A DNA stretch of 64,000 nucleotides from Candidatus Woesebacteria bacterium (GCA_963716475.1 OY970314.1:74479-138478), one strand, 5' to 3'. Positions 6,865-58,399 are shown, counted from the first letter of the stretch. A program made the numbers and translations. The notes: generated by a model from the sequence alone, not told the origin.

Positions 6865-7650
6865 ATGATAAGAACACAAAAAAACCACATAGAATTAGGC
6901 CGTAAAGACGGTAAAATCCTTGGAATTAATGTTACTGGCACTTACATTAATGAAGTGCTAGCAAGAGTAAAGGAGAATATAGCCGATAGTGTCAAATTTT
7001 ACATAGTAACACCCAACCCCGAGATCATTTTAATGGCACAGAAGTTCAAAAAGTTAAAGATTGCTTTAAATGGAACCGACTTGGCGATACCGGATGGAGT
7101 AGGACTAAAGTTTGCTATTCCCGGCTTAAATATTATTAGAGGAAGAGAGCTTTTTTCGGAACTTATAAAACTTTCCAGTGAGAAAAAATGGAAGTTATTC
7201 TTGCTGGGAGGGCTTGGTGACGAGGCGGGATTGTCAGCCAGGAAGCTCAAGGCTCAACATGCAGAACTCAAGATTGAAACATTTAAGGGTCCAAAATTGG
7301 ATAATGACGCTGAACCTGTGTCCGAAAACGATAAAGAGCTTCAAAAGGAGGCAATCGACAGAATTAACAAGTTTGCCCCGCAGCTTCTATTTGTAGCCTT
7401 TGGCAACCCGAAGCAGGAAATTTGGGTTTACGAAAACTATTCAAAATTAAATATCGGGGGGGCAATGGCCGTGGGAGGGGCATTTCGTTACGTAGCCGGG
7501 TTATCCAAGGTCCCGCCAAAATGGATAGCTGATCTGGGTCTTGAGTGGCTCTGGAGGCTTATTAACGAGCCGTTCCGGATTGGCCGCATTTGGAATGCAG
7601 TTATCATTTTCCCTCTAAGAGTATTTATTTTTAAAGTTTTCTCTGTATAA
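6865..7650 (+). CDS. WecB/TagA/CpsF family glycosyltransferase (GT26)
   Basis: 261 aa. Family-typical LLFVAFGNPKQEIWV motif and overall length. Confidence 0.75.
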   Translation: MIRTQKNHIELGRKDGKILGINVTGTYINEVLARVKENIADSVKFYIVTPNPEIILMAQKFKKLKIALNGTDLAIPDGVGLKFAIPGLNIIRGRELFSELIKLSSEKKWKLFLLGGLGDEAGLSARKLKAQHAELKIETFKGPKLDNDAEPVSENDKELQKEAIDRINKFAPQLLFVAFGNPKQEIWVYENYSKLNIGGAMAVGGAFRYVAGLSKVPPKWIADLGLEWLWRLINEPFRIGRIWNAVIIFPLRVFIFKVFSV

Positions 7651-7657
7651 TGACCCC

Positions 7658-7891
7658 ATGTCATGCGATATTTCGCGGACCGGAGAGTGTGACCGTATTG
7701 CTGCGGAAGAATATCATTGTGACGATTGTAGCGATTTTATAGCTTTGGCCCAAGGCGCCATTACAGGTGGCGGTTTTGTTTTGGTTTACTCAAGTCCTAA
7801 CAAGGCTGCTGTTTACAATAGAAACGGCTATTTGCTGATGGAGATTGATAACGGAATGTTTAGGAAAAAGGGGAACATCGGTTCATCTTGA
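7658..7891 (+). CDS. hypothetical small Cys-rich protein
   Basis: 77 aa. CxxxxxxC…CxxC pattern (CDISRTGEC…HCDDC). Fills the gap between the GT26 gene and the sigma factor. Coding status uncertain. Confidence 0.3.
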   Translation: MSCDISRTGECDRIAAEEYHCDDCSDFIALAQGAITGGGFVLVYSSPNKAAVYNRNGYLLMEIDNGMFRKKGNIGSS

Positions 7892-8410
7892 ACCTCCTGA
7901 CCATACTTTAGAAAATTCTTCTTTTGCCCTATAAAGCCTGCCTTCAACCGCCCGCTCGCTTATGCCCATTATTTTTGAGATTTCTATGTAAGACATATCT
8001 TTCCAGTATCTGAACCAAAGAAGTCTCCTTTTGTCGTCGGGGAGCAGGTTTAAGCAATCATTAACGGACCTTCTGAGGTCTTTTAGAGCCAGGCTTTCCT
8101 CGGGGGAGAGGGACTTTTCGTCTTTTTGAGTTATTGCCTCAATTAGAGGCACAACAATTCCGGATCTGGAATTTATCTGGTCGTGGTAATAATCGGCAAT
8201 TTTATTTAGTGCGATCCTGCAAAGCCAAGTAAAATAGCTGCTTTTGTGCCTGAAAGTTGTGAGTCCCCTCCATGCGGCCACAAATGTTTCCTCAACGATT
8301 TCATCTACCTCGTCTTTGTTTGCACCGATCCTTTTCATTACGAATTTGGTCAGAGGGAGAGCCAGTTTTTTATAAAATTCGTCAAACCAGACGCGTGGGT
8401 TATTTGGCAT
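7883..8410 (-). CDS. RNA polymerase ECF-type sigma-70 factor
   Basis: 175 aa. Region 2 (…VEETFVAAWRGLTTF…YFTWLCRIALNKIADYY) and region 4 HTH (…MSYIEISKIMGISERAVEGRLYRAKEEF). Confidence 0.8.
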   Translation of the reverse strand: MPNNPRVWFDEFYKKLALPLTKFVMKRIGANKDEVDEIVEETFVAAWRGLTTFRHKSSYFTWLCRIALNKIADYYHDQINSRSGIVVPLIEAITQKDEKSLSPEESLALKDLRRSVNDCLNLLPDDKRRLLWFRYWKDMSYIEISKIMGISERAVEGRLYRAKEEFSKVWSGGSR

Positions 8411-8431
8411 ATCGAAGACTAATTATATAAC

Positions 8432-8686
8432 ATGGACATTTCCGGAGTATTGTCAAAATATTTGAGGCTGGGTAGGGAGAGGGAAGGCGGTACCTTTTTT
8501 GAAGAGACTTCCTTCTATCGCGATGCAGGTGGGGATATGGGATTAGTGCAGGACGCCGGTGATGGTCGGTATATTTTGGATAAACATCAACTTCAAATCC
8601 TAATGCGGAGGGACCCCAAATCTTCCGATTTTGAGGTAAAAATGCTTCAGGAAGGAAAATTTCTTGTGGGGTTTAAAAAGGAGTAG
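8432..8686 (+). CDS. hypothetical protein
   Basis: 84-aa ORF filling the intergenic gap. No recognisable motif. Confidence 0.25.
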   Translation: MDISGVLSKYLRLGREREGGTFFEETSFYRDAGGDMGLVQDAGDGRYILDKHQLQILMRRDPKSSDFEVKMLQEGKFLVGFKKE

Positions 8687-8699
8687 AATAGGGCCTCAT

Positions 8700-9491
8700 A
8701 TGAAGAATTTGATTCTGATTAAGCTTGGTGGAAGCATAATTACCGATAAGAAAAAGGGCTATTCGGTACGCGGGGCCAATATCTTACGATTGGGGAGAGA
8801 GATAAAAAGTGCCTTAAAAGCCGGCAATTGCAAAGTAATTATCGGTCACGGAGCTGGCAGTTTTGCCCATGTCCCAGCACACAAATATAAAACTAAAGAA
8901 GGACTAATTAATAAAAATAGCCTTTACGGAATGAGTGTTACTGGGGATGCGGCACGGAAGTTGAACTCCATTGTGCTAAAAAATTTTCTTACTTTGGGAC
9001 TTCCGGTGTTTTCTTTTTCTCCGGCAAGTTTCCTGATATCTGATAGATATAGATATAGTAAATCATATATAGATCCTATCAAAAAGGCTTTAAATATTGG
9101 AATTATACCGGTAGTTTATGGGGATGTTATTCTGGACAAGGTAACCGGCTGCACAATTTTTTCCACCGAAAAAATTCTTTCAATATTGGCAAGGCAGTTA
9201 ACAGGGGATTATAAAATCAGAATTATTTATGCAACCGATACAGATGGTGTTTATGATGAAAAAGGGAAAACAATGGAAAAAATTATACAATCAAGCTTTG
9301 ACAAAGTTAAAAAAGTAGTTTCTAGTGCTGGAACGACGGACGTAACCGGTGGGATGCTTCACAAAGTGGAAGAGTCGCTGAAATTAGCCAAAGAAACTGG
9401 AATTGAAACCACTATTGTAAACGGAAACAAAAAAGGTAATTTGTTAAGAGCTGTCCTGGGAGAATCTGTAAGATCTACGATTATCTCCTAA
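8700..9491 (+). CDS. isopentenyl phosphate kinase-like (amino acid kinase family)
   Basis: N-terminal LIKLGGS glycine motif and GHGAGSFAH motif (compare IPK HGGGSFGH). About 264 aa from ATG 8700; the ORF track starts at 8664. Co-located with idi and prenyl synthase genes. Confidence 0.65.
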   Translation: MKNLILIKLGGSIITDKKKGYSVRGANILRLGREIKSALKAGNCKVIIGHGAGSFAHVPAHKYKTKEGLINKNSLYGMSVTGDAARKLNSIVLKNFLTLGLPVFSFSPASFLISDRYRYSKSYIDPIKKALNIGIIPVVYGDVILDKVTGCTIFSTEKILSILARQLTGDYKIRIIYATDTDGVYDEKGKTMEKIIQSSFDKVKKVVSSAGTTDVTGGMLHKVEESLKLAKETGIETTIVNGNKKGNLLRAVLGESVRSTIIS

Positions 9492-9715
9492 AATTCGTCA
9501 GAGCTGTCCATTCCTTCATCCTCTTGTCTTAGGATACTTTTTGTGATGTTGGCAGCAAGATCCGAGTTCTTCGGCTTACTTAGGTCAAGGCTCTCGGTTT
9601 CGCCGCTTTCCACATTTTCCATCTTGACTCTGCAACCACGCAGGTGAGTGTAAAGGTTCCCACCTCTTGGATCAAAATCATAATTGTCTATATTATAGTG
9701 ACTACCTTTTTCCAT
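9488..9715 (-). CDS. hypothetical small acidic protein
   Basis: 75-aa ORF occupying the 266-bp gap between the IPK-like gene and idi. No motif recognised. Confidence 0.25.
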   Translation of the reverse strand: MEKGSHYNIDNYDFDPRGGNLYTHLRGCRVKMENVESGETESLDLSKPKNSDLAANITKSILRQEDEGMDSSDEF

Positions 9716-9757
9716 ATTCGTGAGATATTATATCATATAGCTAAAATTTGTTTAAAA

Positions 9758-10270
9758 ATGGCAAAACCTTTGGTTTTGGTTGATAAAAAAGATAGCGTAC
9801 TGGGATTTAAGGAAAAATTTGCTACTCATAAAATTCCGGTTCCGCTTCATCGGGCGATATCAATTGTTATTTTTAATAAAGGTAAAACAAAGATGCTTAT
9901 TACCAAAAGGGCCGAGGTTAAACCAACCTGGCCTGAATTTTGGACAAACGCGGTTTGCAGCCACCCGTATCCGAAAGAAACTTATCAAAAAGCGGCCGAA
10001 AGAAGGATTTACGAGGAGCTTGGCTTTAAAACAACGCTCAAAGAGGTTTTTCTCTTCACATATGAAGCGGAAATGGATAACAAAGTCTGGGGTGAGCATG
10101 AACTTGACCACGTATTTAAAGGAACTTACGAGGGGCCGGTTAAACCGGATCCGAACGAGACCTCGGGCTATGAATGGATAAGAATAGGGGATTTAAAGAA
10201 AGACGTAATAAATAACCCCCAAAAATATTCCCCATGGTTTATGATTATTTTAGAAAAGCTTAAGATATGA
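9758..10270 (+). CDS. idi: isopentenyl-diphosphate delta-isomerase, type 1 (Nudix fold)
   Basis: HRAISIVIFN and WTNAVCSHP motifs match IDI-1 (HRAFSVFLFN / WTNTCCSHP). Likely start MAKPLVLV at ATG 9758, giving about 171 aa; the ORF track begins at a GTG at 9644. Confidence 0.75.
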   Translation: MAKPLVLVDKKDSVLGFKEKFATHKIPVPLHRAISIVIFNKGKTKMLITKRAEVKPTWPEFWTNAVCSHPYPKETYQKAAERRIYEELGFKTTLKEVFLFTYEAEMDNKVWGEHELDHVFKGTYEGPVKPDPNETSGYEWIRIGDLKKDVINNPQKYSPWFMIILEKLKI

Positions 10271-10324
10271 AAGATATTCCCCTGGTTTGCTTCCGGGATA
10301 GTTGGATGTTATTATACCTATAAT

Positions 10325-10630
10325 ATGGCAGAAAGAATCGTCGAAGTGAGGATGTTTCCACCGGCTGTGGAAAATTTAAGATGTGCTTCAGATGAAAGGA
10401 TATGCACGGTAACCGGCAAGATAAAGGATGTATTACAGTCAAAAGGCTATATCAAGCCCGGCGAAAGAGTGGAGGTACGGCTAATTCCCGATTCTGAGGT
10501 TGATCCAGAATCTCTGTTAAGTACAGCTGCAGTGACCGAGGCGGTTACGGATGATGAACGTCATTTTTTTAAGATAGGTGATCCAGTGAGTGTACCCAAC
10601 ATTGAAGTCCCGGGTGTCAGGCAGAACTAG
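10325..10630 (+). CDS. hypothetical protein
   Basis: 101 aa, no motif recognised. Convergent with the prenyl synthase gene. Confidence 0.3.
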   Translation: MAERIVEVRMFPPAVENLRCASDERICTVTGKIKDVLQSKGYIKPGERVEVRLIPDSEVDPESLLSTAAVTEAVTDDERHFFKIGDPVSVPNIEVPGVRQN

Positions 10631-10636
10631 ACGGTT

Positions 10637-11518
10637 TTAGTACTTTCTCTCAAGGACGAAGTTGATCAGCTCCTTCAGCTCGCTTCTGGCAGGCTCTTTC
10701 GAAAGAAAGCCGAGGTTTTTATCAAATATTTCCAGGGCTTTGGTTTTAGCATCATTCGCCAGTTTCCTTGCATAGGGTACGCCTCTTGTATTTGCTAAGG
10801 TCATTTTTCCCTCTTTACCGTCTTGTTCTATATCCAGAATATCATCAATCAGTTGAAAACACCGTCCAAGATATAAACCAAAATCAGTAATCTTATTTAA
10901 TTGATTATGGGTTGCTCCGGCGAGGATCGCCCCCAGCCTCATCGGCCCGGCCATTGAGTAATATGCACTTTTACTGTCGGCTATAAAAAAATATTCATCC
11001 TGACTTACCTTTTTGGCCTTTTTATTGGTCCAAATTTGTTCGACTCCTTGTCCGAGGGCGGTTCTGAGTAGCATTTTGTAAAACTCTTCACTAATGGCCT
11101 TGGAGTTTTGGTCATTAATAATTTTCCACATAATAATGTGCAGAGAGTCACCGGCGTTAATTGCCAGCTCGTGGCCGTAAATTTTATGTAAAGCGGGCTT
11201 ACCTCTTCTAACCGCCGAGCCGTCTTCAATATCGTCATGGATTAAGATCCATTCTTCGGAGAGCTGCATCGCCGCAGCAACCTTAAAAGCCTTTTGCCTT
11301 TTGGCTCCAAGAGCCTGTGCCGTGAGAAGAACCAGGGTGGGGCGCAGGTACTTGCCCTTCCTTTCCGGGTAAATTCTGTTTATTTTCCAGTACAAATTTA
11401 TGTCCTTTTTGTATTTGTCTGGGATCCGGAATTGGGTAGGGTAACTCGGATCCCTCAAATATTTTTTAATTTCTGGCCAGACGAGCTGTCTGGTCCTTTC
11501 TAAAGTTTTCTGTATCAC
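10637..11518 (-). CDS. trans-polyprenyl diphosphate synthase (FPP/GGPP synthase family)
   Basis: First Asp-rich motif ILIHDDIEDGS and second FQLIDDILD. The ORF track extends to 11611, but that would overlap the uppS 5' end and promoter. A GTG at 11518, preceded by a minus-strand TATAAT, gives a family-typical N-terminus (VIQKTLERTRQLVWPEIKKYL). Confidence 0.75.
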   Translation of the reverse strand: MIQKTLERTRQLVWPEIKKYLRDPSYPTQFRIPDKYKKDINLYWKINRIYPERKGKYLRPTLVLLTAQALGAKRQKAFKVAAAMQLSEEWILIHDDIEDGSAVRRGKPALHKIYGHELAINAGDSLHIIMWKIINDQNSKAISEEFYKMLLRTALGQGVEQIWTNKKAKKVSQDEYFFIADSKSAYYSMAGPMRLGAILAGATHNQLNKITDFGLYLGRCFQLIDDILDIEQDGKEGKMTLANTRGVPYARKLANDAKTKALEIFDKNLGFLSKEPARSELKELINFVLERKY

Positions 11519-11524
11519 AGCCGT

Positions 11525-11557
11525 ATTATATCGCACGAATGCCTTGTGGTATAATTT
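11525..11557. promoter_or_regulatory. back-to-back -10 elements for divergent, apparently leaderless ispA-like and uppS transcripts
   Basis: Plus strand TGGTATAAT (11549-11557) lies 6-7 nt before the uppS ATG at 11564. Minus strand GATATAATA (complement of 11525-11533) lies about 6 nt before the GTG at 11518. Confidence 0.35.
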
Positions 11558-11563
11558 CCTGAT

Positions 11564-12841
11564 ATGTCGGAGACAATATCGCTTCCCAGAGGCACAGTAA
11601 TTCCCAGCCACATCGCTATGATCTTAGACGGCAACAGACGTTGGGCCAGGGCCCGCGGTCTGAAGCCTTGGGAAGGTCATTATCATGGTTTTAAAGCGGT
11701 CGAAAAGCTTGCCGAAGCTGCCAGGCAATTGGGAGTACATACCTTTACCGTTTGGGCATTTTCTACAGAAAATTGGGAGCGTCCCAAAGAGGAGGTCGAC
11801 GCGATAATGAATCTCTTCCGGAAGGCTCTTAAAGAAAAAGAAAAAGAATTCCATCGGGACAGGGTTGCCTTAGTTCACCTGGGCAGGAAAGACAGATTGC
11901 CTGAGGATATCAGCCGGGAATTAACCAGAATCGAAAAAGATACAGCGGTTTACTCTCAAAACCACGTCTTTAACTTGGCGGTAGATTATGGGGGTAGAGA
12001 TGAGATTTTAAGGGCCACTAAGAAAATCGTTGAAAATAAAGTTCCGGCAGCCAAGATTGATGAAAAACTGTTTGAAAGCTACCTGGATACAGCAGGACAA
12101 CCGTATCCGTCCCCGGATCTATTTATTCGCACATCAGGAGAGCAGCGTACAAGCGGCCTTCTTCCTTGGCAGATGAGTTACACTGAATTTTATTTTGAGT
12201 CCGAGCACCTTCCGGATTTTACTCCTGAAAAACTTAAAGTGGCGGTTTTAGACTTTAGCAGGCGCAGGCGTAGGTTTGGCGGTGACGATACTACCAGGCA
12301 TTTTGAATTCAACCCGGGAGTTACGGCAAGACTTGAGATTGATTGGTGGAGGCTTCGGAATGTTCCCGGAGGTATGAGGATAAGGGACTATGCGATGAAG
12401 CACCTTAGAGAGCAATACGGGCTTTCTAAGAAGCTTGCAATTGAAGCCGCCAAATATTTGATTGAAGCAGTCGCCGAGGAGAAGGATGAAAAATGGGACA
12501 AGGCCACCGAAAGAATGAAAAAGTTCTATATGCTTATAAAAGAGGAGGTTAAACTTGCTTTCGAACCCAGGATAGTTGCTTCAATGGAGGTAGATTTTGT
12601 CAGGAAAATGGAAGGTAAAGATAGTGTGGCCGCGTCTTCCGAGGCAGAAAATATTGCCCGGGAGCATCTCGCCGAAGTATACAGAATCTCACTTCTTCAA
12701 GCCGCCAAGGCGGCTCATCTTAAGGTTCTGGCCTCGGTTGAAAGAAACATGGCTCTGGCCGGCTTGGGGGAAGAGCATTGGGCTAAAGCCGAAGATTACT
12801 TGTCAAAATATTACTCGGCACTAAAGGAACGCGTGGCATAG
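11564..12841 (+). CDS. uppS: undecaprenyl (cis-prenyl) diphosphate synthase with about 180-aa C-terminal extension of unknown function
   Basis: HIAMILDGNRRWA, TVWAFSTENWERP and RTSGEQRTSGLLPWQ…FSRRRRRFGG motifs across about 245 aa. An additional about 180 aa (RLEIDWWRLRNVPGG…) has no recognisable domain. Confidence 0.8.
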   Translation: MSETISLPRGTVIPSHIAMILDGNRRWARARGLKPWEGHYHGFKAVEKLAEAARQLGVHTFTVWAFSTENWERPKEEVDAIMNLFRKALKEKEKEFHRDRVALVHLGRKDRLPEDISRELTRIEKDTAVYSQNHVFNLAVDYGGRDEILRATKKIVENKVPAAKIDEKLFESYLDTAGQPYPSPDLFIRTSGEQRTSGLLPWQMSYTEFYFESEHLPDFTPEKLKVAVLDFSRRRRRFGGDDTTRHFEFNPGVTARLEIDWWRLRNVPGGMRIRDYAMKHLREQYGLSKKLAIEAAKYLIEAVAEEKDEKWDKATERMKKFYMLIKEEVKLAFEPRIVASMEVDFVRKMEGKDSVAASSEAENIAREHLAEVYRISLLQAAKAAHLKVLASVERNMALAGLGEEHWAKAEDYLSKYYSALKERVA

Positions 12842-12968
12842 TTTCCAATAATCTTCAAATTTGTAGTGATCTTGTTATCTACACGTCTAAATGGCTATTG
12901 ACACAGTTGTTTCACTTTGATATTTTCTGACTAAGAAAGATAAGAGTTAGGCAGGAGACACTATAAAA

Positions 12969-13187
12969 ATGGATCAAAGCACTAAAAAGAAAATCAGATT
13001 GGAAGATCTTCCGGATCTTCTTACAGTACGGGAGGTAAGCGAACTCCTGCGGGTCTCGCCTTTAACAATTAAGCGTTGGGGTAAAAGGGGAAAACTCCCG
13101 GCTATCCGCATTAACTCCCGTGGAGACCGCAGATATAAAAAAGAGGCTGTCCTTTGGCTTCTGGGAATGCAGGCTAAGGAAGAGTAA
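12969..13187 (+). CDS. excisionase/AlpA-family helix-turn-helix DNA-binding protein
   Basis: 72 aa. LLTVREVSELLRVSPLTIKRWGKRGKLPAIRINSRGDRRYKKEAV matches the HTH_17/excisionase family pattern. A TTGACA-N17-TATTTT promoter-like sequence lies at about 12897-12930. Confidence 0.6.
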   Translation: MDQSTKKKIRLEDLPDLLTVREVSELLRVSPLTIKRWGKRGKLPAIRINSRGDRRYKKEAVLWLLGMQAKEE

Positions 13188-13219
13188 CTTCTTCGTTCCT
13201 TCTCCGTGTTAATATAATA

Positions 13220-13489
13220 TTGATGAAGAAGCATGGAGGCTATCATTATATTCTTACGGCACTCGAGGTTTTGCTGAGTAAAGCCGCGTTTTTATTGGTT
13301 AGTATTGCAGCAGTACTGGCAGGTTATCTTATTTTCGTTGGTCAAAAAACTCCTTTAAAATTCATCTTCGGTATTCCTCTTATACTTGGCGGAGCCGGTT
13401 TGACCATAAACTTATTATGGACAATTATCCTGGTTATCTTTTCACCAAAATATAATCGCGGGGTTTGCAAGATCTGCAATCCAAGCTGA
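13220..13489 (+). CDS. small membrane protein (2-3 TM)
   Basis: 89 aa, strongly hydrophobic. No motif recognised. Confidence 0.35.
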   Translation: MMKKHGGYHYILTALEVLLSKAAFLLVSIAAVLAGYLIFVGQKTPLKFIFGIPLILGGAGLTINLLWTIILVIFSPKYNRGVCKICNPS

Positions 13490-15394: not shown

Positions 15395-18300
15395 ATGCCC
15401 ACAAAAGAAAAAATCTCCGCGGTAAAAAAAGTTTTGGAAGGAATTTCTGTCTCTTCTGTTGCATCTGAGGCCGGGGTTGCCAGAAAAACAATATATTCGT
15501 GGCTAAATATTTATAAAGCCGCTGCCAAAAGAAACAAAAAAACCTGTCTCTTGCCCAAATATGTGGCGGGAAGGGCTCACCCGAGGGAATATACGCACAC
15601 TTTGGAGCAGAAGACAGTAAGACTAATAAAGAAGGACCCGACACTTAGCGTTTCCAAAATGGCTGAAAGATTAAACGCAGGACATCATGCGGTTTACAAT
15701 CTTTTAAAGGCCTTAAAATTGAACACAGAAGATTCCAGGCTTGCATACTCCCGGATTTACTCATATCCCGGTATTTTTGACCCCCAAATTAAGGAATCGG
15801 TTGCAAGGAAAATTGTGAATTCGGAAGGAAAAGTCACGGATATTTCCAGGGAGCTACGGGTTTCCAGAAAGACTATATATAAATGGTTAAAAGAATACAA
15901 AGAGAAGGGAACAGTAAGAAATAACTATTTGAAAGGTTTTGAACACCCCAGATCACTTGGCCCGGAGGCGGAAGCGTCAGTGCTCTCGCAAGTCGTAAAG
16001 GCGCCGGAACTTTCAATTCATGCCTTGGCCACCGGTTTAAACTTTTCCAATCATGCGGTTTTTAATATTCTAAAAAGAAATTTCCTGACTCAAAGAAATG
16101 CCAGGATTATCTATTCTCAGGCTCAGGCTATCCGGGTTTCCGAAAAACCGGAAGCTATCGGTTTTATCGACAGGATAAAGAGTGTTTTTGAAACCTTTAC
16201 TCCGAATCTGGCCCCGGCTCCGCCTCCGGGGGGAAAATCCAAGTTTAGCCCTCTTCTTAAAATCTCCCTGGCTTCGATAATCGTTTTACCGCTTTTCACT
16301 CTTGCCCTGGTCTATTGGGTGAATCTATTAAGGTCCGGTGCAGCAGGGAACGTCGTCGGGCTTATCTTTGCCACAATATCCCTGATTATGGGTACTTTCT
16401 TCTTTTTATATTCACTCAAATATTATTTTACGGTCGCTTTGGTTCTTTCCCGCACCCAGCAGGAAGGGTCAAAAAGCCGTACTTCTATCGGTCTTGAACC
16501 CAATCTCGATCACGTAATTCTCACAAAGAAGCCATACATATCAGTTCATATACCTTTTTATAATGAGAAGAATGTAGTAGAGCGTGCAATTGAGGCTTCA
16601 ACCAATTTCGATTACCCGGAGTATGAAGTGATTCTTTGTGATGATTCAACCGATGAAACAACAACCATTATCAGGGATTATCAAAAGAAATATCTTTCAA
16701 AAGGGGAGAGCTTAAAAATAACTACCAATAGTCAAGACGGCTGGGAGCTGTCCCATGTGGATGTCAGACCGGGAGTAACCCTTAAACATCTTCACAGGAT
16801 CTCAAGAGAAGGTTACAAGGGGGGAGCACTCAGGCTAGCTCTTACTCAGACTGATCCCAGGGCTGAGTTTGTCTCTGTCTTTGATGCCGATTTTGTTCCA
16901 TATCCTGATTCTCTAAACCTTTTCCTCAAGTACTTTAAAGCTGAGAATAACATGAGTGAGGATTATACAGTAAGTAAGGTTGCTGCGGTTCAAGGTTACC
17001 AGTGGCATGTACTTAATAAATCCGAAAACTGGATAACCAGGGGTGTCAGAAGTGAATATGCAGGTAGCTACGTTATCGAAAGAGCGGGAACTGAAATCTA
17101 TGGGGGACTAAAACAAATCTCGGGGTCAGTATATATGATTAGACGTAAGCCCCTAGAAGAAGTAGGCTGGGCCACATCAATCACTGAGGACTTTGAACTT
17201 ACTCTCAAACTATATAATGCCGGCTACAAGGTGGTCTATACACCTTATATACAAGCTCCTGCAGAATGTGTATCAACCCTAAGACGCTTAGTGAGGCAAC
17301 GTATGCGTTGGGCCGAGGGTCATTCTTTCAATGTCAAAAAGATGTTTGCAAAGCTTATGTTCTCTCCGAAACTTTCTTCTGCCGAGAAGTTTGAAACGGT
17401 TTACCTTGCCCCTTACTACCTTCAGGCATTCTTTTTTGTAGTCGGAACTCTTTCCTGGTTTATCAGTGAGACTCTCCTGCCTGCCCGTCTGCCTTTCTGG
17501 ACAGAACTTTGGGGATGGAGTCTGGTCTTAACCAACATGGTAGCCCTTCCCCTTATGAACACCGTCGGAATGTTCCTGGAAGAAAGTGAACAGAAGGACT
17601 ATACAGGAATACTATCATTCGTCGCTCTTTCATACCTTGTGGTCCCGTTTCAGGCCTACGCGGCTGTCAAGGGCTTTCTGGAGACCTCAGAAGGGCCTTG
17701 GTTTAGAACTCCCAAGACCGGTAGAATCACAGACGTCTTTGCCAGGGGTAAATTCTACAGGCTTATCAGACAGATCCTTCCCAGAAGAGCCACCTCATTC
17801 CAAAGTACTTATTCATACAACTACATTACCTTAACGACAGCAAATAATAGATTTAGCAATTTTAAAATAAAAAGGTCGGGAAATAAATATATTTCAAAAG
17901 CATTACTTACGGGATTAACGATTATTATTTTACTTTTGAATCAACTTAGCTTCTTTGCCCCGGGAGTACTTGCGGCAAGTCCTAACCCTACTATTGAACA
18001 ACAAATAAATTTTATGGATAAATTATACTCTACAACCAGCACGAGTGCCGCACCGGGCGATAATTCTTTAGGAATGTTTACTTGGAATGACTCAAAATAT
18101 AATAACGCAACTGTTAATATGGACTATGATGCTGGGAAAAGCGGAAACTTGTCTTATGGCCTAACTTCTGTGGGACTTTCTTTGGTTAATGGAACAACAT
18201 ACACACCGGCAATAAGGTATCAATGTCTTGCAGTGAGTGGAATAGCAACCGAATACGCTATTCCAGGGTTATATACGTCAGGTGGAGTTTTAGTTCAATT

Positions 18301-19282
18301 CTCAGAAGTTTCAATTTCTCTCGGCGAGGTTCCGGGTGGGAAATGTCCTACTTCAGCGAACAGAACACCTGCATATATTGCTGCGGCACGCCTAAGAATT
18401 GTACAGACAAATGCTACCGGAATTACAAATACCAGAAACATGATTGAACTGGGAGATGGTGAAACCATTTCAACAGGTACAACAGCAACTCAGCTAACTT
18501 ACCCCAAATATTGGCTTTATACATCGGGAAATTATGACGGGACTGTTACTACGACTTTTGAAGCGACTGTTTGGAGGGCCGGTGGCAGTTCATACACCGC
18601 CTACGTATGTCTGTATTCTACAGCAGGCAGTGAGATCGGGTGTGTGAGTACCACAAGTACATCCCCGGCTTACCCGACCGCAGTAAGCGTAACCCTGTCA
18701 AACGGAACCGAATATGAAGTAAGAGTCAAAGCCAGCGCAGCCGCAAAAACTGTATATATTGCAAACGCTAAAGTTATAGTTGATCAAGCAGCGGCAGGGG
18801 GAATTACCAAATTGGAAACAGTGCAACATTATAATAACACTCTGGCAACGGAATCAACATCTTCCTATGTTTCTAAGCAATTTTTAACCGAGTTTGTTTT
18901 GGATAACTGGTATGGCGGAACGTTTGCTGCCTATTTTGAGTCGGATATAAAGACTAATAACAGTTCAAATGCCTATTATGCTCGTTTGTACGATATTTAT
19001 AATGCTACCCCTATGGGAGAGATTACAGGTAATGATACTTCCTATGTTAGAAAAACCAGTTCGGATATATGGAGTTCTCTTGCTGCGGGTGGCAATACAA
19101 TGATAGACGTTCAACTGAAAAATAATTCGACCAGCACCACCTCATCATCAAATTCTTGGTTAATCATTAAAGTAACAAATTTACAAGTGCCCGAGAAGCT
19201 TATTTTTGCCCTGCCGTTGATATCCTTAATCCCGATTATAATTAAAAAAAGGAAGGAGATTCTATTAAATAGAAATGGTTGA
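15395..19282 (+). CDS. giant multi-domain surface protein 1: IS630-like HTH repeats + processive GT2 (cellulose-synthase-like) + Ser/Thr-rich ectodomain + VPE-type exosortase sorting tail
   Basis: 1295 aa. Two HTH pairs (…ARKTIYSWLNIYK…, …SRKTIYKWLKEYKEKG…). GT2 motifs VHIPFYNEKNVVERAIE, ILCDDSTDETT, FDADFVP and QRMRWAEGH (QxxRW), plus gating-loop-like WFRTPKTGRITD. Multiple TM helices. C-terminal tail VPEKLIFALPLISLIPIIIKKRKE. Confidence 0.85.
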   Translation: MPTKEKISAVKKVLEGISVSSVASEAGVARKTIYSWLNIYKAAAKRNKKTCLLPKYVAGRAHPREYTHTLEQKTVRLIKKDPTLSVSKMAERLNAGHHAVYNLLKALKLNTEDSRLAYSRIYSYPGIFDPQIKESVARKIVNSEGKVTDISRELRVSRKTIYKWLKEYKEKGTVRNNYLKGFEHPRSLGPEAEASVLSQVVKAPELSIHALATGLNFSNHAVFNILKRNFLTQRNARIIYSQAQAIRVSEKPEAIGFIDRIKSVFETFTPNLAPAPPPGGKSKFSPLLKISLASIIVLPLFTLALVYWVNLLRSGAAGNVVGLIFATISLIMGTFFFLYSLKYYFTVALVLSRTQQEGSKSRTSIGLEPNLDHVILTKKPYISVHIPFYNEKNVVERAIEASTNFDYPEYEVILCDDSTDETTTIIRDYQKKYLSKGESLKITTNSQDGWELSHVDVRPGVTLKHLHRISREGYKGGALRLALTQTDPRAEFVSVFDADFVPYPDSLNLFLKYFKAENNMSEDYTVSKVAAVQGYQWHVLNKSENWITRGVRSEYAGSYVIERAGTEIYGGLKQISGSVYMIRRKPLEEVGWATSITEDFELTLKLYNAGYKVVYTPYIQAPAECVSTLRRLVRQRMRWAEGHSFNVKKMFAKLMFSPKLSSAEKFETVYLAPYYLQAFFFVVGTLSWFISETLLPARLPFWTELWGWSLVLTNMVALPLMNTVGMFLEESEQKDYTGILSFVALSYLVVPFQAYAAVKGFLETSEGPWFRTPKTGRITDVFARGKFYRLIRQILPRRATSFQSTYSYNYITLTTANNRFSNFKIKRSGNKYISKALLTGLTIIILLLNQLSFFAPGVLAASPNPTIEQQINFMDKLYSTTSTSAAPGDNSLGMFTWNDSKYNNATVNMDYDAGKSGNLSYGLTSVGLSLVNGTTYTPAIRYQCLAVSGIATEYAIPGLYTSGGVLVQFSEVSISLGEVPGGKCPTSANRTPAYIAAARLRIVQTNATGITNTRNMIELGDGETISTGTTATQLTYPKYWLYTSGNYDGTVTTTFEATVWRAGGSSYTAYVCLYSTAGSEIGCVSTTSTSPAYPTAVSVTLSNGTEYEVRVKASAAAKTVYIANAKVIVDQAAAGGITKLETVQHYNNTLATESTSSYVSKQFLTEFVLDNWYGGTFAAYFESDIKTNNSSNAYYARLYDIYNATPMGEITGNDTSYVRKTSSDIWSSLAAGGNTMIDVQLKNNSTSTTSSSNSWLIIKVTNLQVPEKLIFALPLISLIPIIIKKRKEILLNRNG

Positions 19283-20437: not shown

Positions 20438-20473
20438 TTGACAGGTGTTAGGATGGTTGGTAACAATGAATAT
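20438..20473 (+). promoter_or_regulatory. sigma-70-like promoter upstream of giant gene 2
   Basis: TTGACA (20438) -N17- TAACAAT, then ATG 20474. The ORF track's TTG start at 20438 is this -35 box. Confidence 0.4.
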
Positions 20474-23400
20474 ATGCCCTTTTCCGAAGCTAAAAGAGAA
20501 AAGATCGTTTTATCCGTACTAAAGGATAATATTGCGGTTTCGGAAGTCTCCAGAAACTACTCTGTTGCCCGAAAAACTATTTACTCTTGGATAAAGAGGT
20601 ATAAAAAGGGAAGTCTTGCTCCACTATATACAAAGGGCAGGAAACACCCGGCGGCCGTATACCCGAAAGCCTATTCTTATATAAGTAGATGGGCTGTAGG
20701 GCACCCCAAGTGGGGATGCCGCACTTTGAGTAAAAGATTAAATGAAAAAGGAATCAGCTTGAGCTACGTTCAGGTTAACAGATTGTTGAACACAATCGGA
20801 GCGGAGACTTATGACAGAAGGTTGAATTATGCCAGAAACTTTGCCGGTCCGGGGAGAACCAGGGAGGATGTCAGGCTTGAAATTGTCAAAAAGGCCGTTA
20901 CCGGGAAAATTTCCATTACAACTCTTTCCGAAAACTACAAAGTTGCCCGTAAGACCATATATAAATGGATAGCGAAATACCGGGCCATTGGTAACATTAA
21001 AGATTCGTACGTCGTTGGTGAGGCTCATCCCAAGGCAATCTACCCGAAAATTACGCAGCAAGTACTCGACTTGGTCGTTACAAACCCCGGTTATTCGGTA
21101 CGCACTCTGGCTAAATCATTTCCGGCATCCTCTTGGACCATCTGGAGTATTTTAAATAGAAATAATCTGAATACATATAATTTAAGGCTCGAATATTCCA
21201 GGAATATATCTGAGGCTGCCGAAGAGAAAGTCTCGACAACGGGAGTTTCCGAAAGGATAAGATCTGTTTTTGAAAGCTTTACTCCAAATCTGGCTCCGGC
21301 CCCGCCTCCGGGGAAACGTAAAATCTTCAACTTCTTCATTATTTCAGTCTTCCTCTTATCAATATCCTTAGCAATTTTCTATTGGGGATCCGTAATTGTT
21401 CACGCTCCGAATATTGCCGGGTCCATAGGCATGATTTTTGCAGGCGTCTCACTGTCACTCGGAATGTTTTTCTTCCTTTATTCTCTTAAATACTATATTT
21501 CTACAGCGATAGTGCTTTCATATTCACAGAAAGAGGGCTTAGATGCCTCGAGAGTAAGCGCTACCGGCTTAAACTCAGACCTCAGTAACATTCATCTTGA
21601 ACGGCATCCTTATGTCTCGGTTCATCTGGCTCTCTATAACGAGAAGAATGTGGTGGAAAGACTGATGAAAGCAGCTACTTCTTTCGATTACGACAATTAT
21701 GAAGTAATCATCGCGGATGACTCAACTGATGAAACCACCGACAAAATCAGGGAGTTTCTGAAAACATTCCTTCCTAAAGGTGAATCGCTTCGGCAAACCA
21801 AAGGGGACGGGTGGGCAATGACAGAAGTTGACATAAGGAGCGGGGTTGTCTTTAAACATGTCCATAGAACCACAAGGATGGGTTATAAAGGGGGAGCGCT
21901 GAAGCTTGCCCTTTCTCTTACCGACCCGAAAGCTGAATTTGTTTCTGTCTTTGATGCCGATTTTGTGCCTTACCCAGATTCCCTGATGCTATTTCTTAAA
22001 TACTTCAAACTACAGAATAATGGATCAGAAGACTACAAAACAAGTAATACTGCATCAGTTCAGGGCTATCAGTGGCACGTACTTAATAAATCAGAAAACT
22101 GGATTACTAGGGGAGTCAGAAGTGAGTATGCAGGTAGCTACGTAATAGAAAGAGCCGGAACCGAAATCTACAAAGGCCTAAAGCAAATCTCGGGATCAGT
22201 TTACATGATCAGGCGCGATGTTTTGGAAGGAATAGGTTGGGGTACTTCTATCACTGAGGACTTTGAGCTTACCCTGAAACTCTACGAAAAAGGCTACAAA
22301 GTGGTTTATACGCCGTATATTCAGGCTCCGGCTGAATGCGTATCGACCCTAAGAAGACTTGTCAGACAACGTATGCGTTGGGCGGAAGGACATTCTTTCA
22401 ATGTCAAAAAGATGTTCGCAAAGCTTATGTTCTCTCCAAAACTTTCTTCCGCCGAGAAGTTTGAAACGGTTTATCTTGCCCCTTACTATCTACAGGCATT
22501 ATTCTTCCTCATCGGAACTCTCTCCTGGTTCATTTCGGAAACCATTTTACCCGCCCGCCTTCCTTTCTGGACAGAGCTTTGGGGATGGAGTTTGGTTCTG
22601 ACCAATATGATTTCACTGCCGCTTCTAAACACAGTCGGACTTTTCTTAGAGGAATCGGACAGAAAGGATTACTCGGGTATTCCATCTTTTATAGCTCTTT
22701 CATATATAGTTGTTCCGTTTCAGGCCTATGCGGCTGTAAAAGGCTTTCTGGAGAAGGAGGAAGGACCATGGTTTAGAACTCCGAAAACCGGCCGCATTAC
22801 GGATGTTTTCAAAAGAGGTAAGTTCTACAAATTTATTTCCGGGATCTTGCCGGGGAAGGCTGCCGGTTCTGCCACGAGTTATGATCTAAGTCCTTATCTT
22901 GCCCTGACCTCAGCCAATAATAGATTCAGCTCGTTCTCCATTCAAACAAGAAAAGGCAGAAGGTGGGTGGGAAAACTAATGCTAACCTCAATGCTTATTA
23001 TTTCCAATCTTCTTCTTTCTTTTTCTCCTTATATTGAATCAAGGGACGGCAACAGCCAACCTCCTCCGGGAACAGGTATTCTTATGGATGGCAGTACAAA
23101 AGGATCGGGAGGCAAGGTCAATTTAACTCCTGAGCAGCAGCAGTCTTTGGACAAATCGATTAAAGCGAATAACCAAAAAACAAGCTTTAAACTGGTTAGC
23201 GATGTCTCGGCAGCAGAAATATCCGGAGGCAGTGAGGTGAACACCTCCTTTGATGTTAAAAAGAAAGACCTTGAACTTAGCGGGGGAAATACCACCTTTA
23301 CAACTGATGAAAATCCCCAATTTACCTTAAAGCAGAACGACGGTTTTTGGGAATTTATCAAGAATATTTTCATTAAAGAAAAACCCTTGAAAGATCAGGT

Positions 23401-26400
23401 TGTTGTAACAGTTTTGGACTTAAAAGGTAAGGAGGTGGGAAGCCCGCAGGTGGTAGAAGGTGGAATTGATGATTTAAGTATAAATCTTGACAAAACAACC
23501 CTTACTCCGGGCGGATATACTCTTGAGATCAAAAGTGGGAGTAGCCCCGTTATCACCCAGGATTTCAGTTGGGGAGTGCTGGCAATAAATACCAATAAGT
23601 CGGTATATAGTCCGGGTGAAGACGCCTCCATTTCAATGGGGGTTCTTAATGAAGTTGGAGAAACGCTTTGTAGCGCGGGACTAACGCTTGATATTACAGA
23701 CACGGCAGGCACAGTTACCGCTTTAACCACAAAGGAGGGCACCATTAAAGTCAGCGATGAATGCAGCCTCAAGGGCTTCAGCCTGAAACCCGACTATGAA
23801 GCAGCCTACAAAACAACGGTTGCAGGAAAGTACAGCATGGTTCTGACTGCAGAGACTCTTAACGGCAAATATGTTATCAAGGGTTGGTTTGAGGCAAAAG
23901 ACTCGGTCGATTTTGACGTCGAAACGATTACGGCCTCCAGAATTAATCCGGTTTATGAATACCCGGTTATTTTTATAGTTAAGGCGGGTAAAGACTACAA
24001 TGGCATTGTTGAAGAAAAAGTCCCGGCCGGCTTTGAAATCAGTAAACTCAACGACTTAAAGTTGAATAACTATCTGGATTCTAAAGGGGAAAGTACGGCA
24101 AGCGGTAAACTTCAGGAGACACTGGTTAATGACGGTTCACAGGAGGCGGGACAAAAAACACTCCGTTGGATTGTTGACTGGAAAAAAGACCAGACTTATG
24201 TTCTTGCATACGCTTTTAAAGCGCCGATGGTCAGTCCAGAATTTTATCTACTCGGGCCGCTCTGGATCGGGGCATATGAGGGAGCGGGAGGTTGGCAGAT
24301 AGCCGCGGATAAGGTCCCTGCTGGGATTATTGTCGGTTGGCCGTCAACTGTAGCCTCAATTCCTAATCACTGGAGCAGGGTTTCAGGCGCGGCTCTTGAC
24401 GGGTACTTTTTAAGATCAGTAACAGCAACTGATCCGTCGGGTACTCCCGGAGGAAATGCCAGCCATACTCATTCACCGGCGAGTCATACTCATTCCGTTC
24501 CTGTCCATACACATACAGTTCCCGCTTTTGCCCAATCAACCAATACTTCGGCAACGACGGGTAACTCTACGGGTTCCGCCCGTGATACTCATACTCATGC
24601 GGCATTTAGTTCCGGAAATTCCAACGTAACCGTCAATAATGCCCAGACGGTTCCTTTTGCGGGACTTTCCAATGACCCCGATAATTCAACCGTCATCTGG
24701 ATCCAGTCGGACGGAGACCCGTCTACCGAAATTCCGGTAGGGTCTTATGTTTACTTTGACTCAAACACCATGCCGGGAGCCAACTGGGGTAGAGTAAAGG
24801 GAAATTACTTCCTTAAAGGTGCGGCAACGGGTTTAGGGGGAGGAACCGATACGGTAACAGGTTCCGCAACTCATACCCACGCCGCCTCAGCCGACCATAC
24901 CCATACTGAGGCTGCCCATACCCATTCAGGGAGCTCGGCAGGAGGTTCACTTGCTGTTTCCAGTACGGGAACTGGGTCTTACTCTCCGAGTGGCCATACA
25001 CATACCGTTACCTCAAGCTCCGTTGCGGCAACGGAGGGAGGAGCATCGGTAACCCCGACAGTCGGAGTGGCCGCTCCCTCGGGAGAACCTCCTTGGTACA
25101 AACTTAATATCATTAGTAAGTCTACAGGTGCTAATGAAACTCCTTTAAATGTCATTGCCATGTGGACCGGAACTCTGGCAACAATTCCCGACGGTTGGGT
25201 AATTTGTGACGGAACAAATGGAACTCCAAACCTGGGTACAAACTTTATCAAAGGCGCAAATGCCGACGGGGAGCTCAATACCACCGGGGGTTCCCTTACC
25301 CACACTCATGGGGCAGGCAATACCCATACACATACAATAAATGCTCACGTACACACCTGGACGGTTGGAGCTGCCTCCGGAACCGGTGTTGGATTAACGG
25401 GAAATGGAAGATCAGCCGTGGTCAGTACTCATACACATACCCTCAGCGCTGCGCAAACATCAAGTGGCGGAGGTTCAACAGGAACGGCAACTATTACGGC
25501 CGACTCGCAATCTAATCTTCCTCTCTACAAAGAGGTTGCCTACATTATGTATATCGGTAAGACTGTTGCCGGTAAAGCCTATTCGGATGAAGCAACCAGT
25601 ATCTGGGCCGGTTGTGACAACTCGACTGCCAGAATAAGTTTGGTAGTTAACGGCGGTACAGCCTCCACAACCTCATGCAGCAGTTCAGACGGATCTTTCA
25701 GTTTCAAGAATGTTACTCACGCGACAGATAATCCAATATCGGTATTTTTTAATACCGCAGGTAGCAATGCCGACAAAGGTGTGGCAGTTACTATCGCCAA
25801 CGATGCCACTACTCCGATTACCCTTAATCCCAGAAAAAATATTGTCTGGATGAGGAGTGAGAAAGCAACACCGACCATTACCAACTCCAATCTGGCTCAT
25901 TGTTATGCCTCAACCCCCGCAAGCTGTGCCAATGTCCCGTATTCTGCTTCGGGAGCCAATATAACCCTAACTACTGGAGTTGAGCTTCATGTAGAAAGCA
26001 GTATGACATATGATCCCGGGGGAACCACTGCAACCACCGGTACCGGAAGTCTGCATGTGGATGACAATGCTGTCGCATACTTGGATACTACTGGCAATAC
26101 CATTGCTAATAATATTTTAGTGGATGCCGGGGCGACCATTCATATTGATGCCAGTACGGCAGTAAACGGGGGAAATATCACGGTTACAGGTAACGGAATA
26201 GTATCTTCAGCCGCCGGAACCGTAACTATGGGGGCAAGCGGAACCATTGGGGGAGGATCAACAGGATCTACCTTCCAGTTAACAGATCTTGTTGTTTCTT
26301 CGGGGACTACAACCCTGGGGACGGATGCCGACAATATACTGGACTTTACCGGGGATATCAACGTTTCGGCCGGAGCCGTGCTTGCCATGAACAATAAAAC

Positions 26401-57009: not shown

Positions 57010-57026
57010 GGTTTATTTTTAATTAA

Positions 57027-58397: not shown

Positions 58398-58399
58398 TC

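Follow-up and report, generated by a model that had tools for sequence, protein, structure and literature searches.

Genes of the Cluster and Its Surroundings

The window, that is, the whole 64-kb stretch of DNA that was analyzed, originates from a Woesebacteria/Microgenomates-like (CPR) bacterium with a tiny genome. Sequence matches give Woesebacteria/Microgenomates as its nearest named relatives, and database matches locate 100%-identical IPK, UppS, and MreB sequences on a contig of 982,852 bp (hereafter the source contig). Four enzymes are encoded at 8700–12841, namely an isopentenyl phosphate kinase (IPK), a type-1 isopentenyl-diphosphate delta-isomerase (IDI), a short-chain trans-prenyl diphosphate synthase (transPT or tPT), and a cis-prenyltransferase (UppS) (table 1). 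The ORF positions and the co-location of these genes are exactly those given by the original prediction. The E-values of the family matches range from 1e-32 to 1e-72 and thus exclude chance matches for all four enzymes.

Table 1. Features of the isoprenoid cluster and of its surroundings in the window.
Feature	Coordinates	Strand	Remarks
WecG/TagA gene	6865–7650		Enzyme type typically using polyprenol-linked substrates
ECF-type sigma factor gene	7883–8410	-	Sigma70_r2 and r4_2 domains; TIGR02937 89.5 bits
Sigma–IPK spacer	8411–8699	.	289 bp; site of MVK and decarboxylase in relatives
ORF in spacer	8432–8686		84 aa
IPK	8700–9491	+	263 aa; contains LIKLGGS and GHGAGSFAH
Type-1 (Nudix-fold) IDI	9755–10270	+	171 aa from ATG; alternative start possible at GTG 9644
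Conserved small ORF (orf101)	10325–10630	+	101 aa; between IDI and transPT
Short-chain trans-isoprenyl diphosphate synthase (FPP/GGPP synthase type)	10637–11611	-	PF00348 161.9 bits
UppS-family cis-prenyltransferase	11564–12841	+	TIGR00055 223.9 bits (cutoff 109.55), residues 13–239
C-terminal extension of UppS	about 12296–12838		About 185 aa, helical
PMT_2/TMEM260-like GT-C gene	31625–33550		Enzyme type typically using polyprenol-linked substrates
GT2 gene	43082–43813		243 aa; enzyme type typically using polyprenol-linked substrates
PTPS-related membrane protein gene	49791–52790		Enzyme type typically using polyprenol-linked substrates

Many polyprenol-dependent glycosyltransferases (GT-C, Dpm1-like) had also been predicted for the window. 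This applies to the nearby WecG/TagA, GT-C, GT2, and PTPS-related genes, but the three largest glycosyltransferases of the 64 kb are processive GT2 fusions and not GT-C enzymes.

Family and Substrate of the Kinase

The kinase scores 201.4 bits against the NCBIfam model NF040647 (IPPK_Arch), thus passing the curated equivalog cutoff of 120, and 112 bits against PF00696 of the amino-acid-kinase fold. The models of other subfamilies of this fold (FosC, ProB, FomA, PyrH, and ArgB) reach 41 bits at most, far under their cutoffs (350 for FosC and 550 for FomA in NCBIfam), with FosC (41 bits), ProB (40), and PyrH (27.7) following IPPK_Arch. Similarly, the top PDB matches are all IPKs (121–136 bits), and FomA is found at 35 bits. 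Clustering with a different amino-acid-kinase subfamily was the outcome that the original prediction had named as its own refutation; the scores place the protein within the IPK family.

The protein of the window keeps each of the 11 residues listed as highly conserved in IPK (Dellas et al. 2013, PMC3857490 Table 2). The correspondence from Methanocaldococcus (M.) jannaschii is K6 to K8, G8/G9 to G10/G11, K15 to K17, G54 to G51, H60 to H57, P140 to P137, G144 to G141, D213 to D214, T215 to T216, and G216 to G217, and the partly conserved K221 equals K222. The conserved residues are invariant across 20 homologues, and M. jannaschii His60 is the signature histidine of IPK (PMC9654404). Judged from family and residues, the kinase probably phosphorylates isopentenyl phosphate (IP), and probably dimethylallyl phosphate (DMAP) too, to IPP/DMAPP.

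It is very improbable that this is an IPK-like protein with a changed substrate, which in place of IP would use a prenyl monophosphate of greater length or, in the manner of FomA/FosC, a phosphonate. The fosfomycin kinases FomA and FosC are related to IPK, as seen in their weak matches, and a Met is aligned with M. jannaschii F83, which we take to be a pocket residue, reportedly on the basis of the mutagenesis work of Dellas and Noel. On the contrary, the distance between the IPK equivalog score (201 bits) and those for FosC/FomA (at most 41) argues against such a change, as does the retention of every conserved residue, signature His included, and archaeal IPKs aligned from PDB also show the Thr at the position equivalent to I86.

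Isomerase, trans-Synthase, and UppS

The IDI passes both NF002995 (149.8 bits, cutoff 127) and TIGR02150 (127.8 bits, cutoff 105.8). In the alignment to 1I9A, it keeps the equivalents of E. coli H25, H32, C67, H69, E87, E114, E116, and W161; the catalytic Cys and Glu and the metal ligands are conserved. Orthologues occupy the corresponding place in L088 (74%), L015 (72.5%), and L012 (62%), and the gene is missing without remnant in L001, L008, L003, L090, and L005 among the loci compared.

Downstream of IDI, inside the cluster, lies a 101-aa ORF that was absent from the original prediction. It has no match in Pfam or NCBIfam. L008, L001, L003, and L090 each have a homologue at the equivalent site, and the N-terminal sequence MAERIV does not vary among them.

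As its orthologues measure 293–310 aa, the trans-synthase probably begins at a start codon located downstream of GTG 11611. The best PDB match is 1WMW, the geranylgeranyl diphosphate synthetase of Thermus (147 bits), and both Asp-rich motifs are present (DDIED and DDILD). The context of the first motif, WILIHDDIEDGS, is close to that of 1WMW, the two sharing the near-identical W(I/V)L(I/V)HDDIEDGS. A bulky Trp occupies position -5 of this motif, which carries no insertion. According to the chain-length rules, a bulky -5 residue and a first motif free of insertion lead to a C15–C20 product. The best NCBIfam models are those of GGPP synthase and IdsA short-chain synthases, and since all remain under their equivalog cutoffs, we infer the product length, which would be C15 or C20.

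UppS contains the catalytic motif DGNRRWA. Its C-terminal extension is 64–86% identical across Woesebacteria loci and has no sequence match in Pfam or PDB. The AlphaFold2 model of the extension is all-helical (pLDDT 70.6), and a Foldseek search with this model against PDB gave no match at E<1.

Gene Order in Relatives and the Missing Upstream Genes

The sigma factor gene is the conserved left boundary of the cluster, within the synteny frame ArgRS-M16-NDK-PEGA-MreB-WecG-sigma(-)-IPK...UppS. In relatives, MVK and the decarboxylase (DMD) sit between sigma and IPK: L012 has the junction sigma(-)/MVK-DMD-IPK, whereas L016 and L088 have sigma(-)/..DMD-IPK. In the window and in L001, L003, L005, L008, L011, L017, L018, and L090, the junction is sigma(-)/IPK. 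The spacer of the window contains only a nonconserved ORF, with no family and no homologue among the relatives examined.

The full operon HMGR-HMGS-thiolase-OB(DUF35)-MVK-decarboxylase-IPK is found in L072 and L084, and in L072, UppS is also ≤1 kb downstream of IPK. The order is MVK-DMD-IPK-IDI-tPT-UppS in L012 and L014, DMD-IPK-IDI-tPT-UppS in L088, IPK-IDI-orf101-tPT-UppS in the window, IPK-orf101-tPT-UppS in L008 and L001, and IPK-UppS in L090 and L005. In five divergent loci, the end of the decarboxylase gene and the start of IPK share 4 bp (ATGA). UppS lies ≤4 kb from IPK in 39 of the 49 CPR-side loci versus one of the 34 archaeal-side loci, and with IPK and IDI paired in 18 of the 49 CPR-side loci, the IPK-UppS pair is the most constant one. 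Thus, IPK-IDI-transPT-UppS is supported as an evolutionarily conserved module.

The best PDB match of the CPR decarboxylases is 6N0X/6N0Y (291 bits), the former being presumably the phosphomevalonate decarboxylase of Anaerolinea, versus 224 bits for the best deposited mevalonate diphosphate decarboxylase (MDD). These decarboxylases have Lys and Asn at the equivalents of S. epidermidis K21 and I27, which is MDD-like (PMC3857490 Table 4). The signature in the relatives is thus mixed (Lys/Asn as in MDD, His as in the MPD structure) and does not single out one substrate of the decarboxylase even there.

MVK, decarboxylase, and HMGR, either intact or degraded, are all absent from the 64-kb window, where tblastn with CPR seeds of the three gave nothing better than E=0.47. 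A large-database search seeded with the decarboxylase of a close relative did not return the source contig among the best 120 matches listed, which extend to ~56% identity; as Woesebacteria-group decarboxylases share 61–75% identity, a copy in that contig should have appeared. The source contig was also not among the best 120 matches of a Woesebacteria-group MVK search (~51–58% identity), with the limit that identity between MVKs of the group can be as low as 46%. The matches listed for both genes include the L012 contig (482,216 bp), and four other long contigs with the sigma/IPK junction (1,078,985; 872,458; 780,708; and 954,911 bp) are not among the best 120 of either. The original prediction of IPP supply through the alternative mevalonate route is therefore not supported: the required MVK and decarboxylase are absent upstream of IPK and in the 64 kb, and no copy from the source contig is among the best 120 matches for either gene.

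Proposed History and the Source of Isopentenyl Phosphate

Since relatives carry MVK and the decarboxylase upstream and the window has neither, the cluster is read as the surviving end of a mevalonate operon present in an ancestor. We lean slightly toward this view, in which the genes at 8700–12841 would be the downstream half of an ancestral CPR isoprenoid operon, together with the pathway and the stepwise loss outlined here. The enzymatic steps are assigned from family membership and conserved catalytic residues, and the evolutionary reading comes from synteny. From the product of IPK, IDI would balance IPP and DMAPP, the short-chain trans-synthase would form the FPP/GGPP primer, and the cis-prenyltransferase would add IPP units to it until a long polyprenyl diphosphate results. 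Once dephosphorylated, the polyprenyl product may serve the nearby WecG/TagA- and GT-C-type glycosyltransferases as the lipid carrier for sugars of the cell surface. The ancestral order would have been (HMGR-HMGS-thiolase-DUF35-)MVK-decarboxylase-IPK-IDI-transPT-UppS, with genes deleted step by step and differently in each Woesebacteria sublineage. The source genome would have lost MVK and the decarboxylase at the locus and kept IPK, IDI, transPT, and UppS; its closest relatives would have further lost IDI (L008 and L001) or both IDI and transPT (L090 and L005), leaving IPK-UppS as the invariant core.

IPK is under purifying selection in the "orphan" genomes and must therefore still receive substrate. 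Our leading guess for its source is salvage, either of a C5 prenyl monophosphate or of prenol that a different kinase phosphorylates, taken from a host or the surroundings; we infer that salvage is the most likely origin, ranking it above de novo mevalonate. On a rival view, the genome would run a complete alternative mevalonate pathway of the haloarchaea/Chloroflexi type (PMC3857490), with upstream genes elsewhere on the chromosome and IPK as the final, committed reaction in making IPP de novo. The window IPK resembles that of this pathway in its signature His and conserved residues, related CPR genomes hold the MVK-decarboxylase-IPK set in one operon without phosphomevalonate kinase (PMVK), their decarboxylase is nearest to 6N0X/6N0Y, and MVA genes occur in most Microgenomates (Hoshino and Gaucher 2018, PMC6107057). 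Such a pathway is nevertheless unlikely here, as the MVK and decarboxylase steps are gone from their conserved site without remnant, the source contig is not among the best 120 matches of searches that did recover the L012 contig, and the ongoing loss of module genes in close relatives fits decay better than relocation.

It is equally doubtful that IPP comes from another complete pathway (MEP, or the classical MVA route through PMVK and MDD) and that IPK merely rephosphorylates IP/DMAP released by phosphatases or Nudix hydrolases, a recycling role as proposed for plant IPK and one to which we give a similarly low probability. Functional IPKs are known alongside the full classical pathway (PMC3857490), and the MDD-like Lys/Asn of the CPR decarboxylases is compatible with a classical route plus IPK, which is the view of Hoshino and Gaucher for CPR (PMC6107057). 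Yet the MEP pathway occurs only sparsely across CPR, no decarboxylase or MVK of the source contig is among the best 120 matches listed, and recycling alone leaves unexplained why IPK, and not the IPP-producing genes, is linked to UppS most tightly and most universally.

Comparison with Known Systems

Hoshino and Gaucher (2018, Mol Biol Evol, PMC6107057) reported Microgenomates IPKs in synteny with IDI-1 and a cis-prenyltransferase, as well as "orphan" IPKs; the pattern of an IPK cluster without upstream genes is already described for this bacterial group. Their cases and the window are alike in phylogenetic group, in the archaeal-type IPK, and in its synteny with IDI-1 and cis-IPPS, but their paper does not mention the source genome by name. 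New here are the deletion series at the level of the locus, the exact site of the MVK/decarboxylase loss, and the recognition of IPK-UppS as the most constant pair.

As in the bacterial ispA-uppS system, a trans short-chain synthase would prime a cis-prenyltransferase making the glycan-carrier lipid. Whereas ordinary bacteria have the two genes associated with those of the MEP pathway, their counterparts in the window associate with IPK. Furthermore, the trans-synthase is nearest to the Thermus GGPP synthase and not to IspA, and UppS has an additional conserved C-terminal domain in comparison with the bacterial uppS products.

A likeness to the engineered isopentenol utilization pathway (promiscuous alcohol kinase plus IPK; PMC9654404) may be drawn as functional speculation only. 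Both would offer a one- or two-enzyme entry to IPP/DMAPP that bypasses MVA/MEP, and both end with IPK followed by IDI; the engineered pathway is synthetic, and here neither a natural prenol kinase for the first step nor a transporter for uptake was identified. Tentatively, and at rather low probability, this lineage and several sister lineages (near-complete contigs of 0.8–1.1 Mb) might live without any de novo C5 pathway, obtaining all their IPP by IPK-dependent salvage of host-derived or environmental isopentenyl/dimethylallyl phosphate, or of prenols that some further kinase would phosphorylate. If this is true, the IPK-UppS pair would represent a minimal system of the "carrier-lipid from scavenged C5" kind and the natural equivalent of that engineered pathway.

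The Isoprenoid Gene Cluster of the Window

The genes for isopentenyl phosphate kinase (IPK), type-1 IPP isomerase (IDI), a trans-prenyl diphosphate synthase and the cis-prenyltransferase UppS, which the original prediction had placed at 8700–12841, were borne out by the ORF map and profile searches (see table). The identity of the kinase also held, as its score exceeds the cutoff of the IPK model and clustering with another amino-acid-kinase subfamily was not seen. In detail, UMP kinase (PyrH), glutamate 5-kinase (ProB), acetylglutamate kinase (ArgB) and FomA/FosC were rejected as assignments; these and carbamate kinase all score ≤41 bits, far under their cutoffs. Among solved structures, six archaeal IPK sequences matched with 121–136 bits and FomA with 35 bits, while a seventh IPK match, 3LKK (70 bits), is deposited as a gamma-glutamyl kinase-related protein. 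The residues reported as highly conserved in IPKs (K6, G8, G9, K15, G54, H60, P140, G144, D213, T215 and G216 in Methanocaldococcus jannaschii numbering; Dellas et al. 2013, PMC3857490) are all present in the window's enzyme when aligned to 3K4O (K8, G10, G11, K17, G51, H57, P137, G141, D214, T216 and G217; 11/11), and are invariant across 20 aligned homologues. His60 is the signature residue of IPKs and stabilises the terminal phosphate (PMC9654404).

In the IDI alignment, the positions that match the metal ligands and the catalytic Cys and Glu of the E. coli enzyme are retained. Both Asp-rich motifs are found in the trans-synthase, and its nearest structure is 1WMW, a geranylgeranyl diphosphate synthetase of Thermus thermophilus (147 bits vs. 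89 for the next match), with which it has the WxLxHDDIEDGS context in common. From published chain-length rules, a C15–C20 product is predicted. Judged by family membership and conserved residues, the four neighbouring genes encode a kinase for IP/DMAP, an isomerase for IPP/DMAPP, a trans-synthase of the short-chain class and a cis-prenyltransferase of the long-chain class.

The catalytic domain of UppS (residues 13–239) is followed by a C-terminal extension, which is 64–86% identical among related Woesebacteria loci and has zero sequence matches in Pfam or PDB. It was modelled as all-helical (AlphaFold2, single sequence, pLDDT 70.6), and a Foldseek search of the model against PDB gave no match at E<1. 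In one related locus (L024), a stand-alone ORF similar to this extension is located just upstream of UppS.

Features of the window and of selected related loci (positions of the window unless another locus is named)
Feature	Position	Strand	Description
IPK	8700–9491	+	263 aa, amino-acid-kinase fold; NF040647 201.4 bits (cutoff 120)
Type-1 IDI	9755–10270	+	above cutoff in both type-1 IDI models
orf101	10325–10630		unannotated, 101 aa; between IDI and trans-synthase
Polyprenyl synthetase (trans-synthase)	10637–11611	−	PF00348, 162 bits
UppS	11564–12841	+	passes TIGR00055, 224 bits
UppS C-terminal extension	about 12296–12838		~185 aa
Nucleotide-conserved stretch	12887–13000		ahead of HTH_17 gene
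HTH_17/MerR-like gene	12969–13187		72 aa, excisionase-type
Giant protein	15395–19282		1295 aa
Giant protein	20438–31612		3724 aa
Giant protein	35013–41273		2086 aa
Radical-SAM gene	55558–57009
Radical-SAM gene	57027–58397		B12-binding domain
Methyltransferase	58400–59185
Radical-SAM gene	59185–60615		weak B12-binding match
Decarboxylase/IPK overlap locus, L012	9033–10792		ATGA
Decarboxylase/IPK overlap locus, L016	9018–10795		ATGA
Decarboxylase/IPK overlap locus, L088	2761–4532		ATGA
Decarboxylase/IPK overlap locus, L084	9036–10798		ATGA
Decarboxylase/IPK overlap locus, L072	4772–6570		ATGA
ORFs in the upstream place of MVK, L088	1778–2764		132 aa, and 193 aa weakly Nudix-like; also in L089

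Conservation of the Cluster in Related Genomes

The sample consisted of the surroundings of IPK homologues at 80 loci from genomes and several from metagenomes, annotated by phmmer with the window proteins and seeds from candidate-phyla (CPR) bacteria, and split into two sides on the neighbor-joining tree of IPK. UppS lies within 4 kb of IPK in 39/49 loci of the CPR side, and near IPK in one of the 34 of the archaeal side. At the same distance on the CPR side, IDI and the trans-synthase are found in 18/49 loci each, an MDD-like decarboxylase in 14/49 and mevalonate kinase (MVK) in 6/49. The IPK–UppS pairing is conserved across CPR and forms the constant core of the cluster.

Database copies of IPK, UppS and MreB with 100% identity to those of the window each lie on a 982,852-bp contig (NCBI and ENA). 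The named carriers of related IPKs are MAGs of Candidatus Woesebacteria/Microgenomates, and the best match among GTDB representatives is 78% identical. The order ArgRS-M16 peptidase-NDK-PEGA-MreB-WecG-sigma(−)-IPK...UppS is common to many Woesebacteria contigs. The Woesebacteria synteny MreB-WecG-sigma-IPK-UppS is also seen in many TPA MAG records that bear the title "uncultured Gammaproteobacteria" or "Pseudomonadales" (L012, L015, L018–L022, L024 and others), and a "Bathyarchaeia" record (L027) has the CPR-like order sigma-decarboxylase-IPK-UppS; these titles appear to be taxonomically mislabelled.

Loci whose IPKs are nearest to that of the window form a graded series in one syntenic frame. 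The longest arrangement, sigma(−)/MVK-decarboxylase-IPK-IDI-trans-synthase(−)-UppS, is found in L012 and L014, followed by sigma(−)/...decarboxylase-IPK-IDI-trans-synthase(−)-UppS in L088, the closest relative still carrying the decarboxylase. The window has sigma(−)/IPK-IDI-orf101-trans-synthase(−)-UppS, with a gap of only 289 bp from sigma to IPK; L008 and L001 have IPK-orf101-trans-synthase(−)-UppS, and L090 and L005 solely IPK-UppS. IDI is probably ancestral at this site, because L088, L015 and L012 have 62–74% identical orthologues in this very place. A search for IDI remnants in the relatives without IDI found none. Of the small ORFs that stand next to IPK in relatives (116-aa, 73-aa, 132-aa, 193-aa Nudix-like, 86-aa and 56-aa), the window has no equivalent.

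The small orf101 also occurs in L001, L003, L008 and L090, between IPK/IDI and the prenyltransferases, with an invariant N-terminus (MAERIV) and a fast-evolving remainder. Downstream of UppS, the HTH_17 gene is conserved in most related loci. The stretch ahead of it is 88% (L090) and 79% (L088) conserved in nucleotides and holds a promoter-like TTGACA-17-TATTTT site. A promoter and terminator scan of 7600–13400 gave consensus-level matches only, and operon boundaries were not clear.

The Complete Operon and Its Decarboxylase

Two CPR loci, L072 and L084, carry a contiguous operon of HMGR-HMGS-archaeal-type thiolase-OB/DUF35-MVK-decarboxylase-IPK, inside which there is no phosphomevalonate kinase (PMVK); in L072, UppS is also located <1 kb downstream of IPK. 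The stop of the decarboxylase overlaps the start of IPK by 4 bp (ATGA) in five divergent loci, which suggests translational coupling. The upstream place of MVK is taken by two other ORFs in L088 and L089, and by an unrelated Cys-rich ORF of 167 aa in L016.

The CPR decarboxylase scores above the cutoff of the mevalonate diphosphate decarboxylase (MDD) model (295 bits) and below that of the haloarchaeal phosphomevalonate decarboxylase (PMD) model. Among solved structures it comes closest to 6N0X/6N0Y (291 bits; best classical MDD 224 bits), and 6N0X we take, from the literature, to be the Anaerolinea PMD. The enzyme has Lys and Asn at the positions of S. epidermidis K21 and I27, which is MDD-like, and also keeps the His mutated in the engineered 6N0Z variant. 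Compared with the active-site Table 4 of Dellas et al. (PMC3857490), this signature is mixed, so that the residues assign the enzyme neither to PMD nor to MDD (mevalonate-5-P vs. mevalonate-5-PP). CPR relatives may therefore run either MVK, PMD and IPK in sequence or the classical route plus IPK, in line with Hoshino and Gaucher (PMC6107057).

Search for Mevalonate Genes in the Window and Its Contig

Searching the 64 kb by tblastn with CPR seeds of MVK, decarboxylase and HMGR gave no match better than E=0.47. None of the remaining large ORFs of the window (≥120 aa) turned out to be an MVA or MEP enzyme when scanned with Pfam, and pseudogene remnants of MVK, decarboxylase and HMGR, sought in the window, were not found.

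Beyond the window, the decarboxylase of L016 was used as query in a large-database search, where the best 120 clusters reached down to ~56% identity; decarboxylases inside the Woesebacteria group are 61–75% identical to each other. Long contigs, that of L012 (482,216 bp) among them, are represented in the matches listed, and no match within these best 120, to ~56% identity, comes from the window's 982,852-bp contig. The same applies to four other long contigs (1,078,985 bp, that is, CP066686.1, deposited as chromosome; 872,458, 780,708 and 954,911 bp), whose IPK either comes straight after the sigma gene or is a near relative of one that does. Searching for MVK led to the same result among the matches listed, with less power, because MVKs in the group can be only 46% identical. 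This indirect genome-wide test took in the MDD-family decarboxylase and MVK. There is fairly good evidence that the MDD-family decarboxylase is absent from the window's genome, and weaker evidence that MVK is.

Other Features of the Window

The three giant proteins have in common an unusual layout, in which N-terminal transposase-like HTH domains (HTH_28/HTH_23/HTH_32) are followed by a processive GT2 domain (Glyco_trans_2_3) and this by a C-terminal part of great length. A Laminin_G_3 domain is present in one of the three. At 55558–60615, radical-SAM genes are interleaved with a methyltransferase and flanked by glycosyltransferases, and this region may be a surface-glycan modification cluster.

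Source of Isopentenyl Phosphate and Role of IPK

Dependence on hosts for lipids is assumed for CPR bacteria, yet their surfaces are glycosylated, and polyprenyl-phosphate carriers are thus needed. Starting from isopentenyl phosphate, the module would yield the polyprenyl diphosphate needed for glycan carriers; these would probably serve, among others, WecG/TagA, encoded 1 kb upstream, and GT-C-type enzymes further downstream.

As for the source of isopentenyl phosphate, the original prediction of an archaeal-type alternative mevalonate route stood in part: the IPK family and the IPK–UppS pairing conserved in CPR agree with it, whereas the absence of MVK and decarboxylase from the locus and the 64 kb, and of a contig decarboxylase among the best 120 matches, speaks against it. 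The reading we prefer is that C5 prenyl phosphates or alcohols are salvaged, since IPK keeps all its functional residues in genomes without an adjacent decarboxylase, though the strong form of this proposal is tentative. Relocation of the MVA genes elsewhere in the genome would retain the alternative route, and in view of the decarboxylase result among the best 120 matches we regard it as rather improbable. Equally doubtful is a supply of IPP from another pathway with IPK acting in recycling.

Archaeal-type IPK is known in CPR, mostly in Microgenomates. Its synteny with IDI-1 is common and extends to species without most MVA genes, and CPR MVA genes cluster with a cis-prenyltransferase gene (Hoshino and Gaucher 2018, PMC6107057). 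That a Microgenomates genome should have IPK beside IDI and prenyltransferases is thus already known. Literature searches on the mevalonate pathway under the names Woesebacteria and Patescibacteria returned nothing relevant. Added here are the locus-resolved deletion series, the IPK–UppS constant core, the decarboxylase–IPK overlap and the conserved UppS extension.

The locus is of value as a clean test case rather than as a discovery. It offers a gene-by-gene view of the trimming of a mevalonate operon in Woesebacteria, with IPK and UppS kept throughout. The function of CPR IPK was stated as unknown by Hoshino and Gaucher (2018, PMC6107057), and such trimming makes their question concrete and testable, with two candidate roles for the enzyme: last step in an alternative mevalonate route, or salvage.
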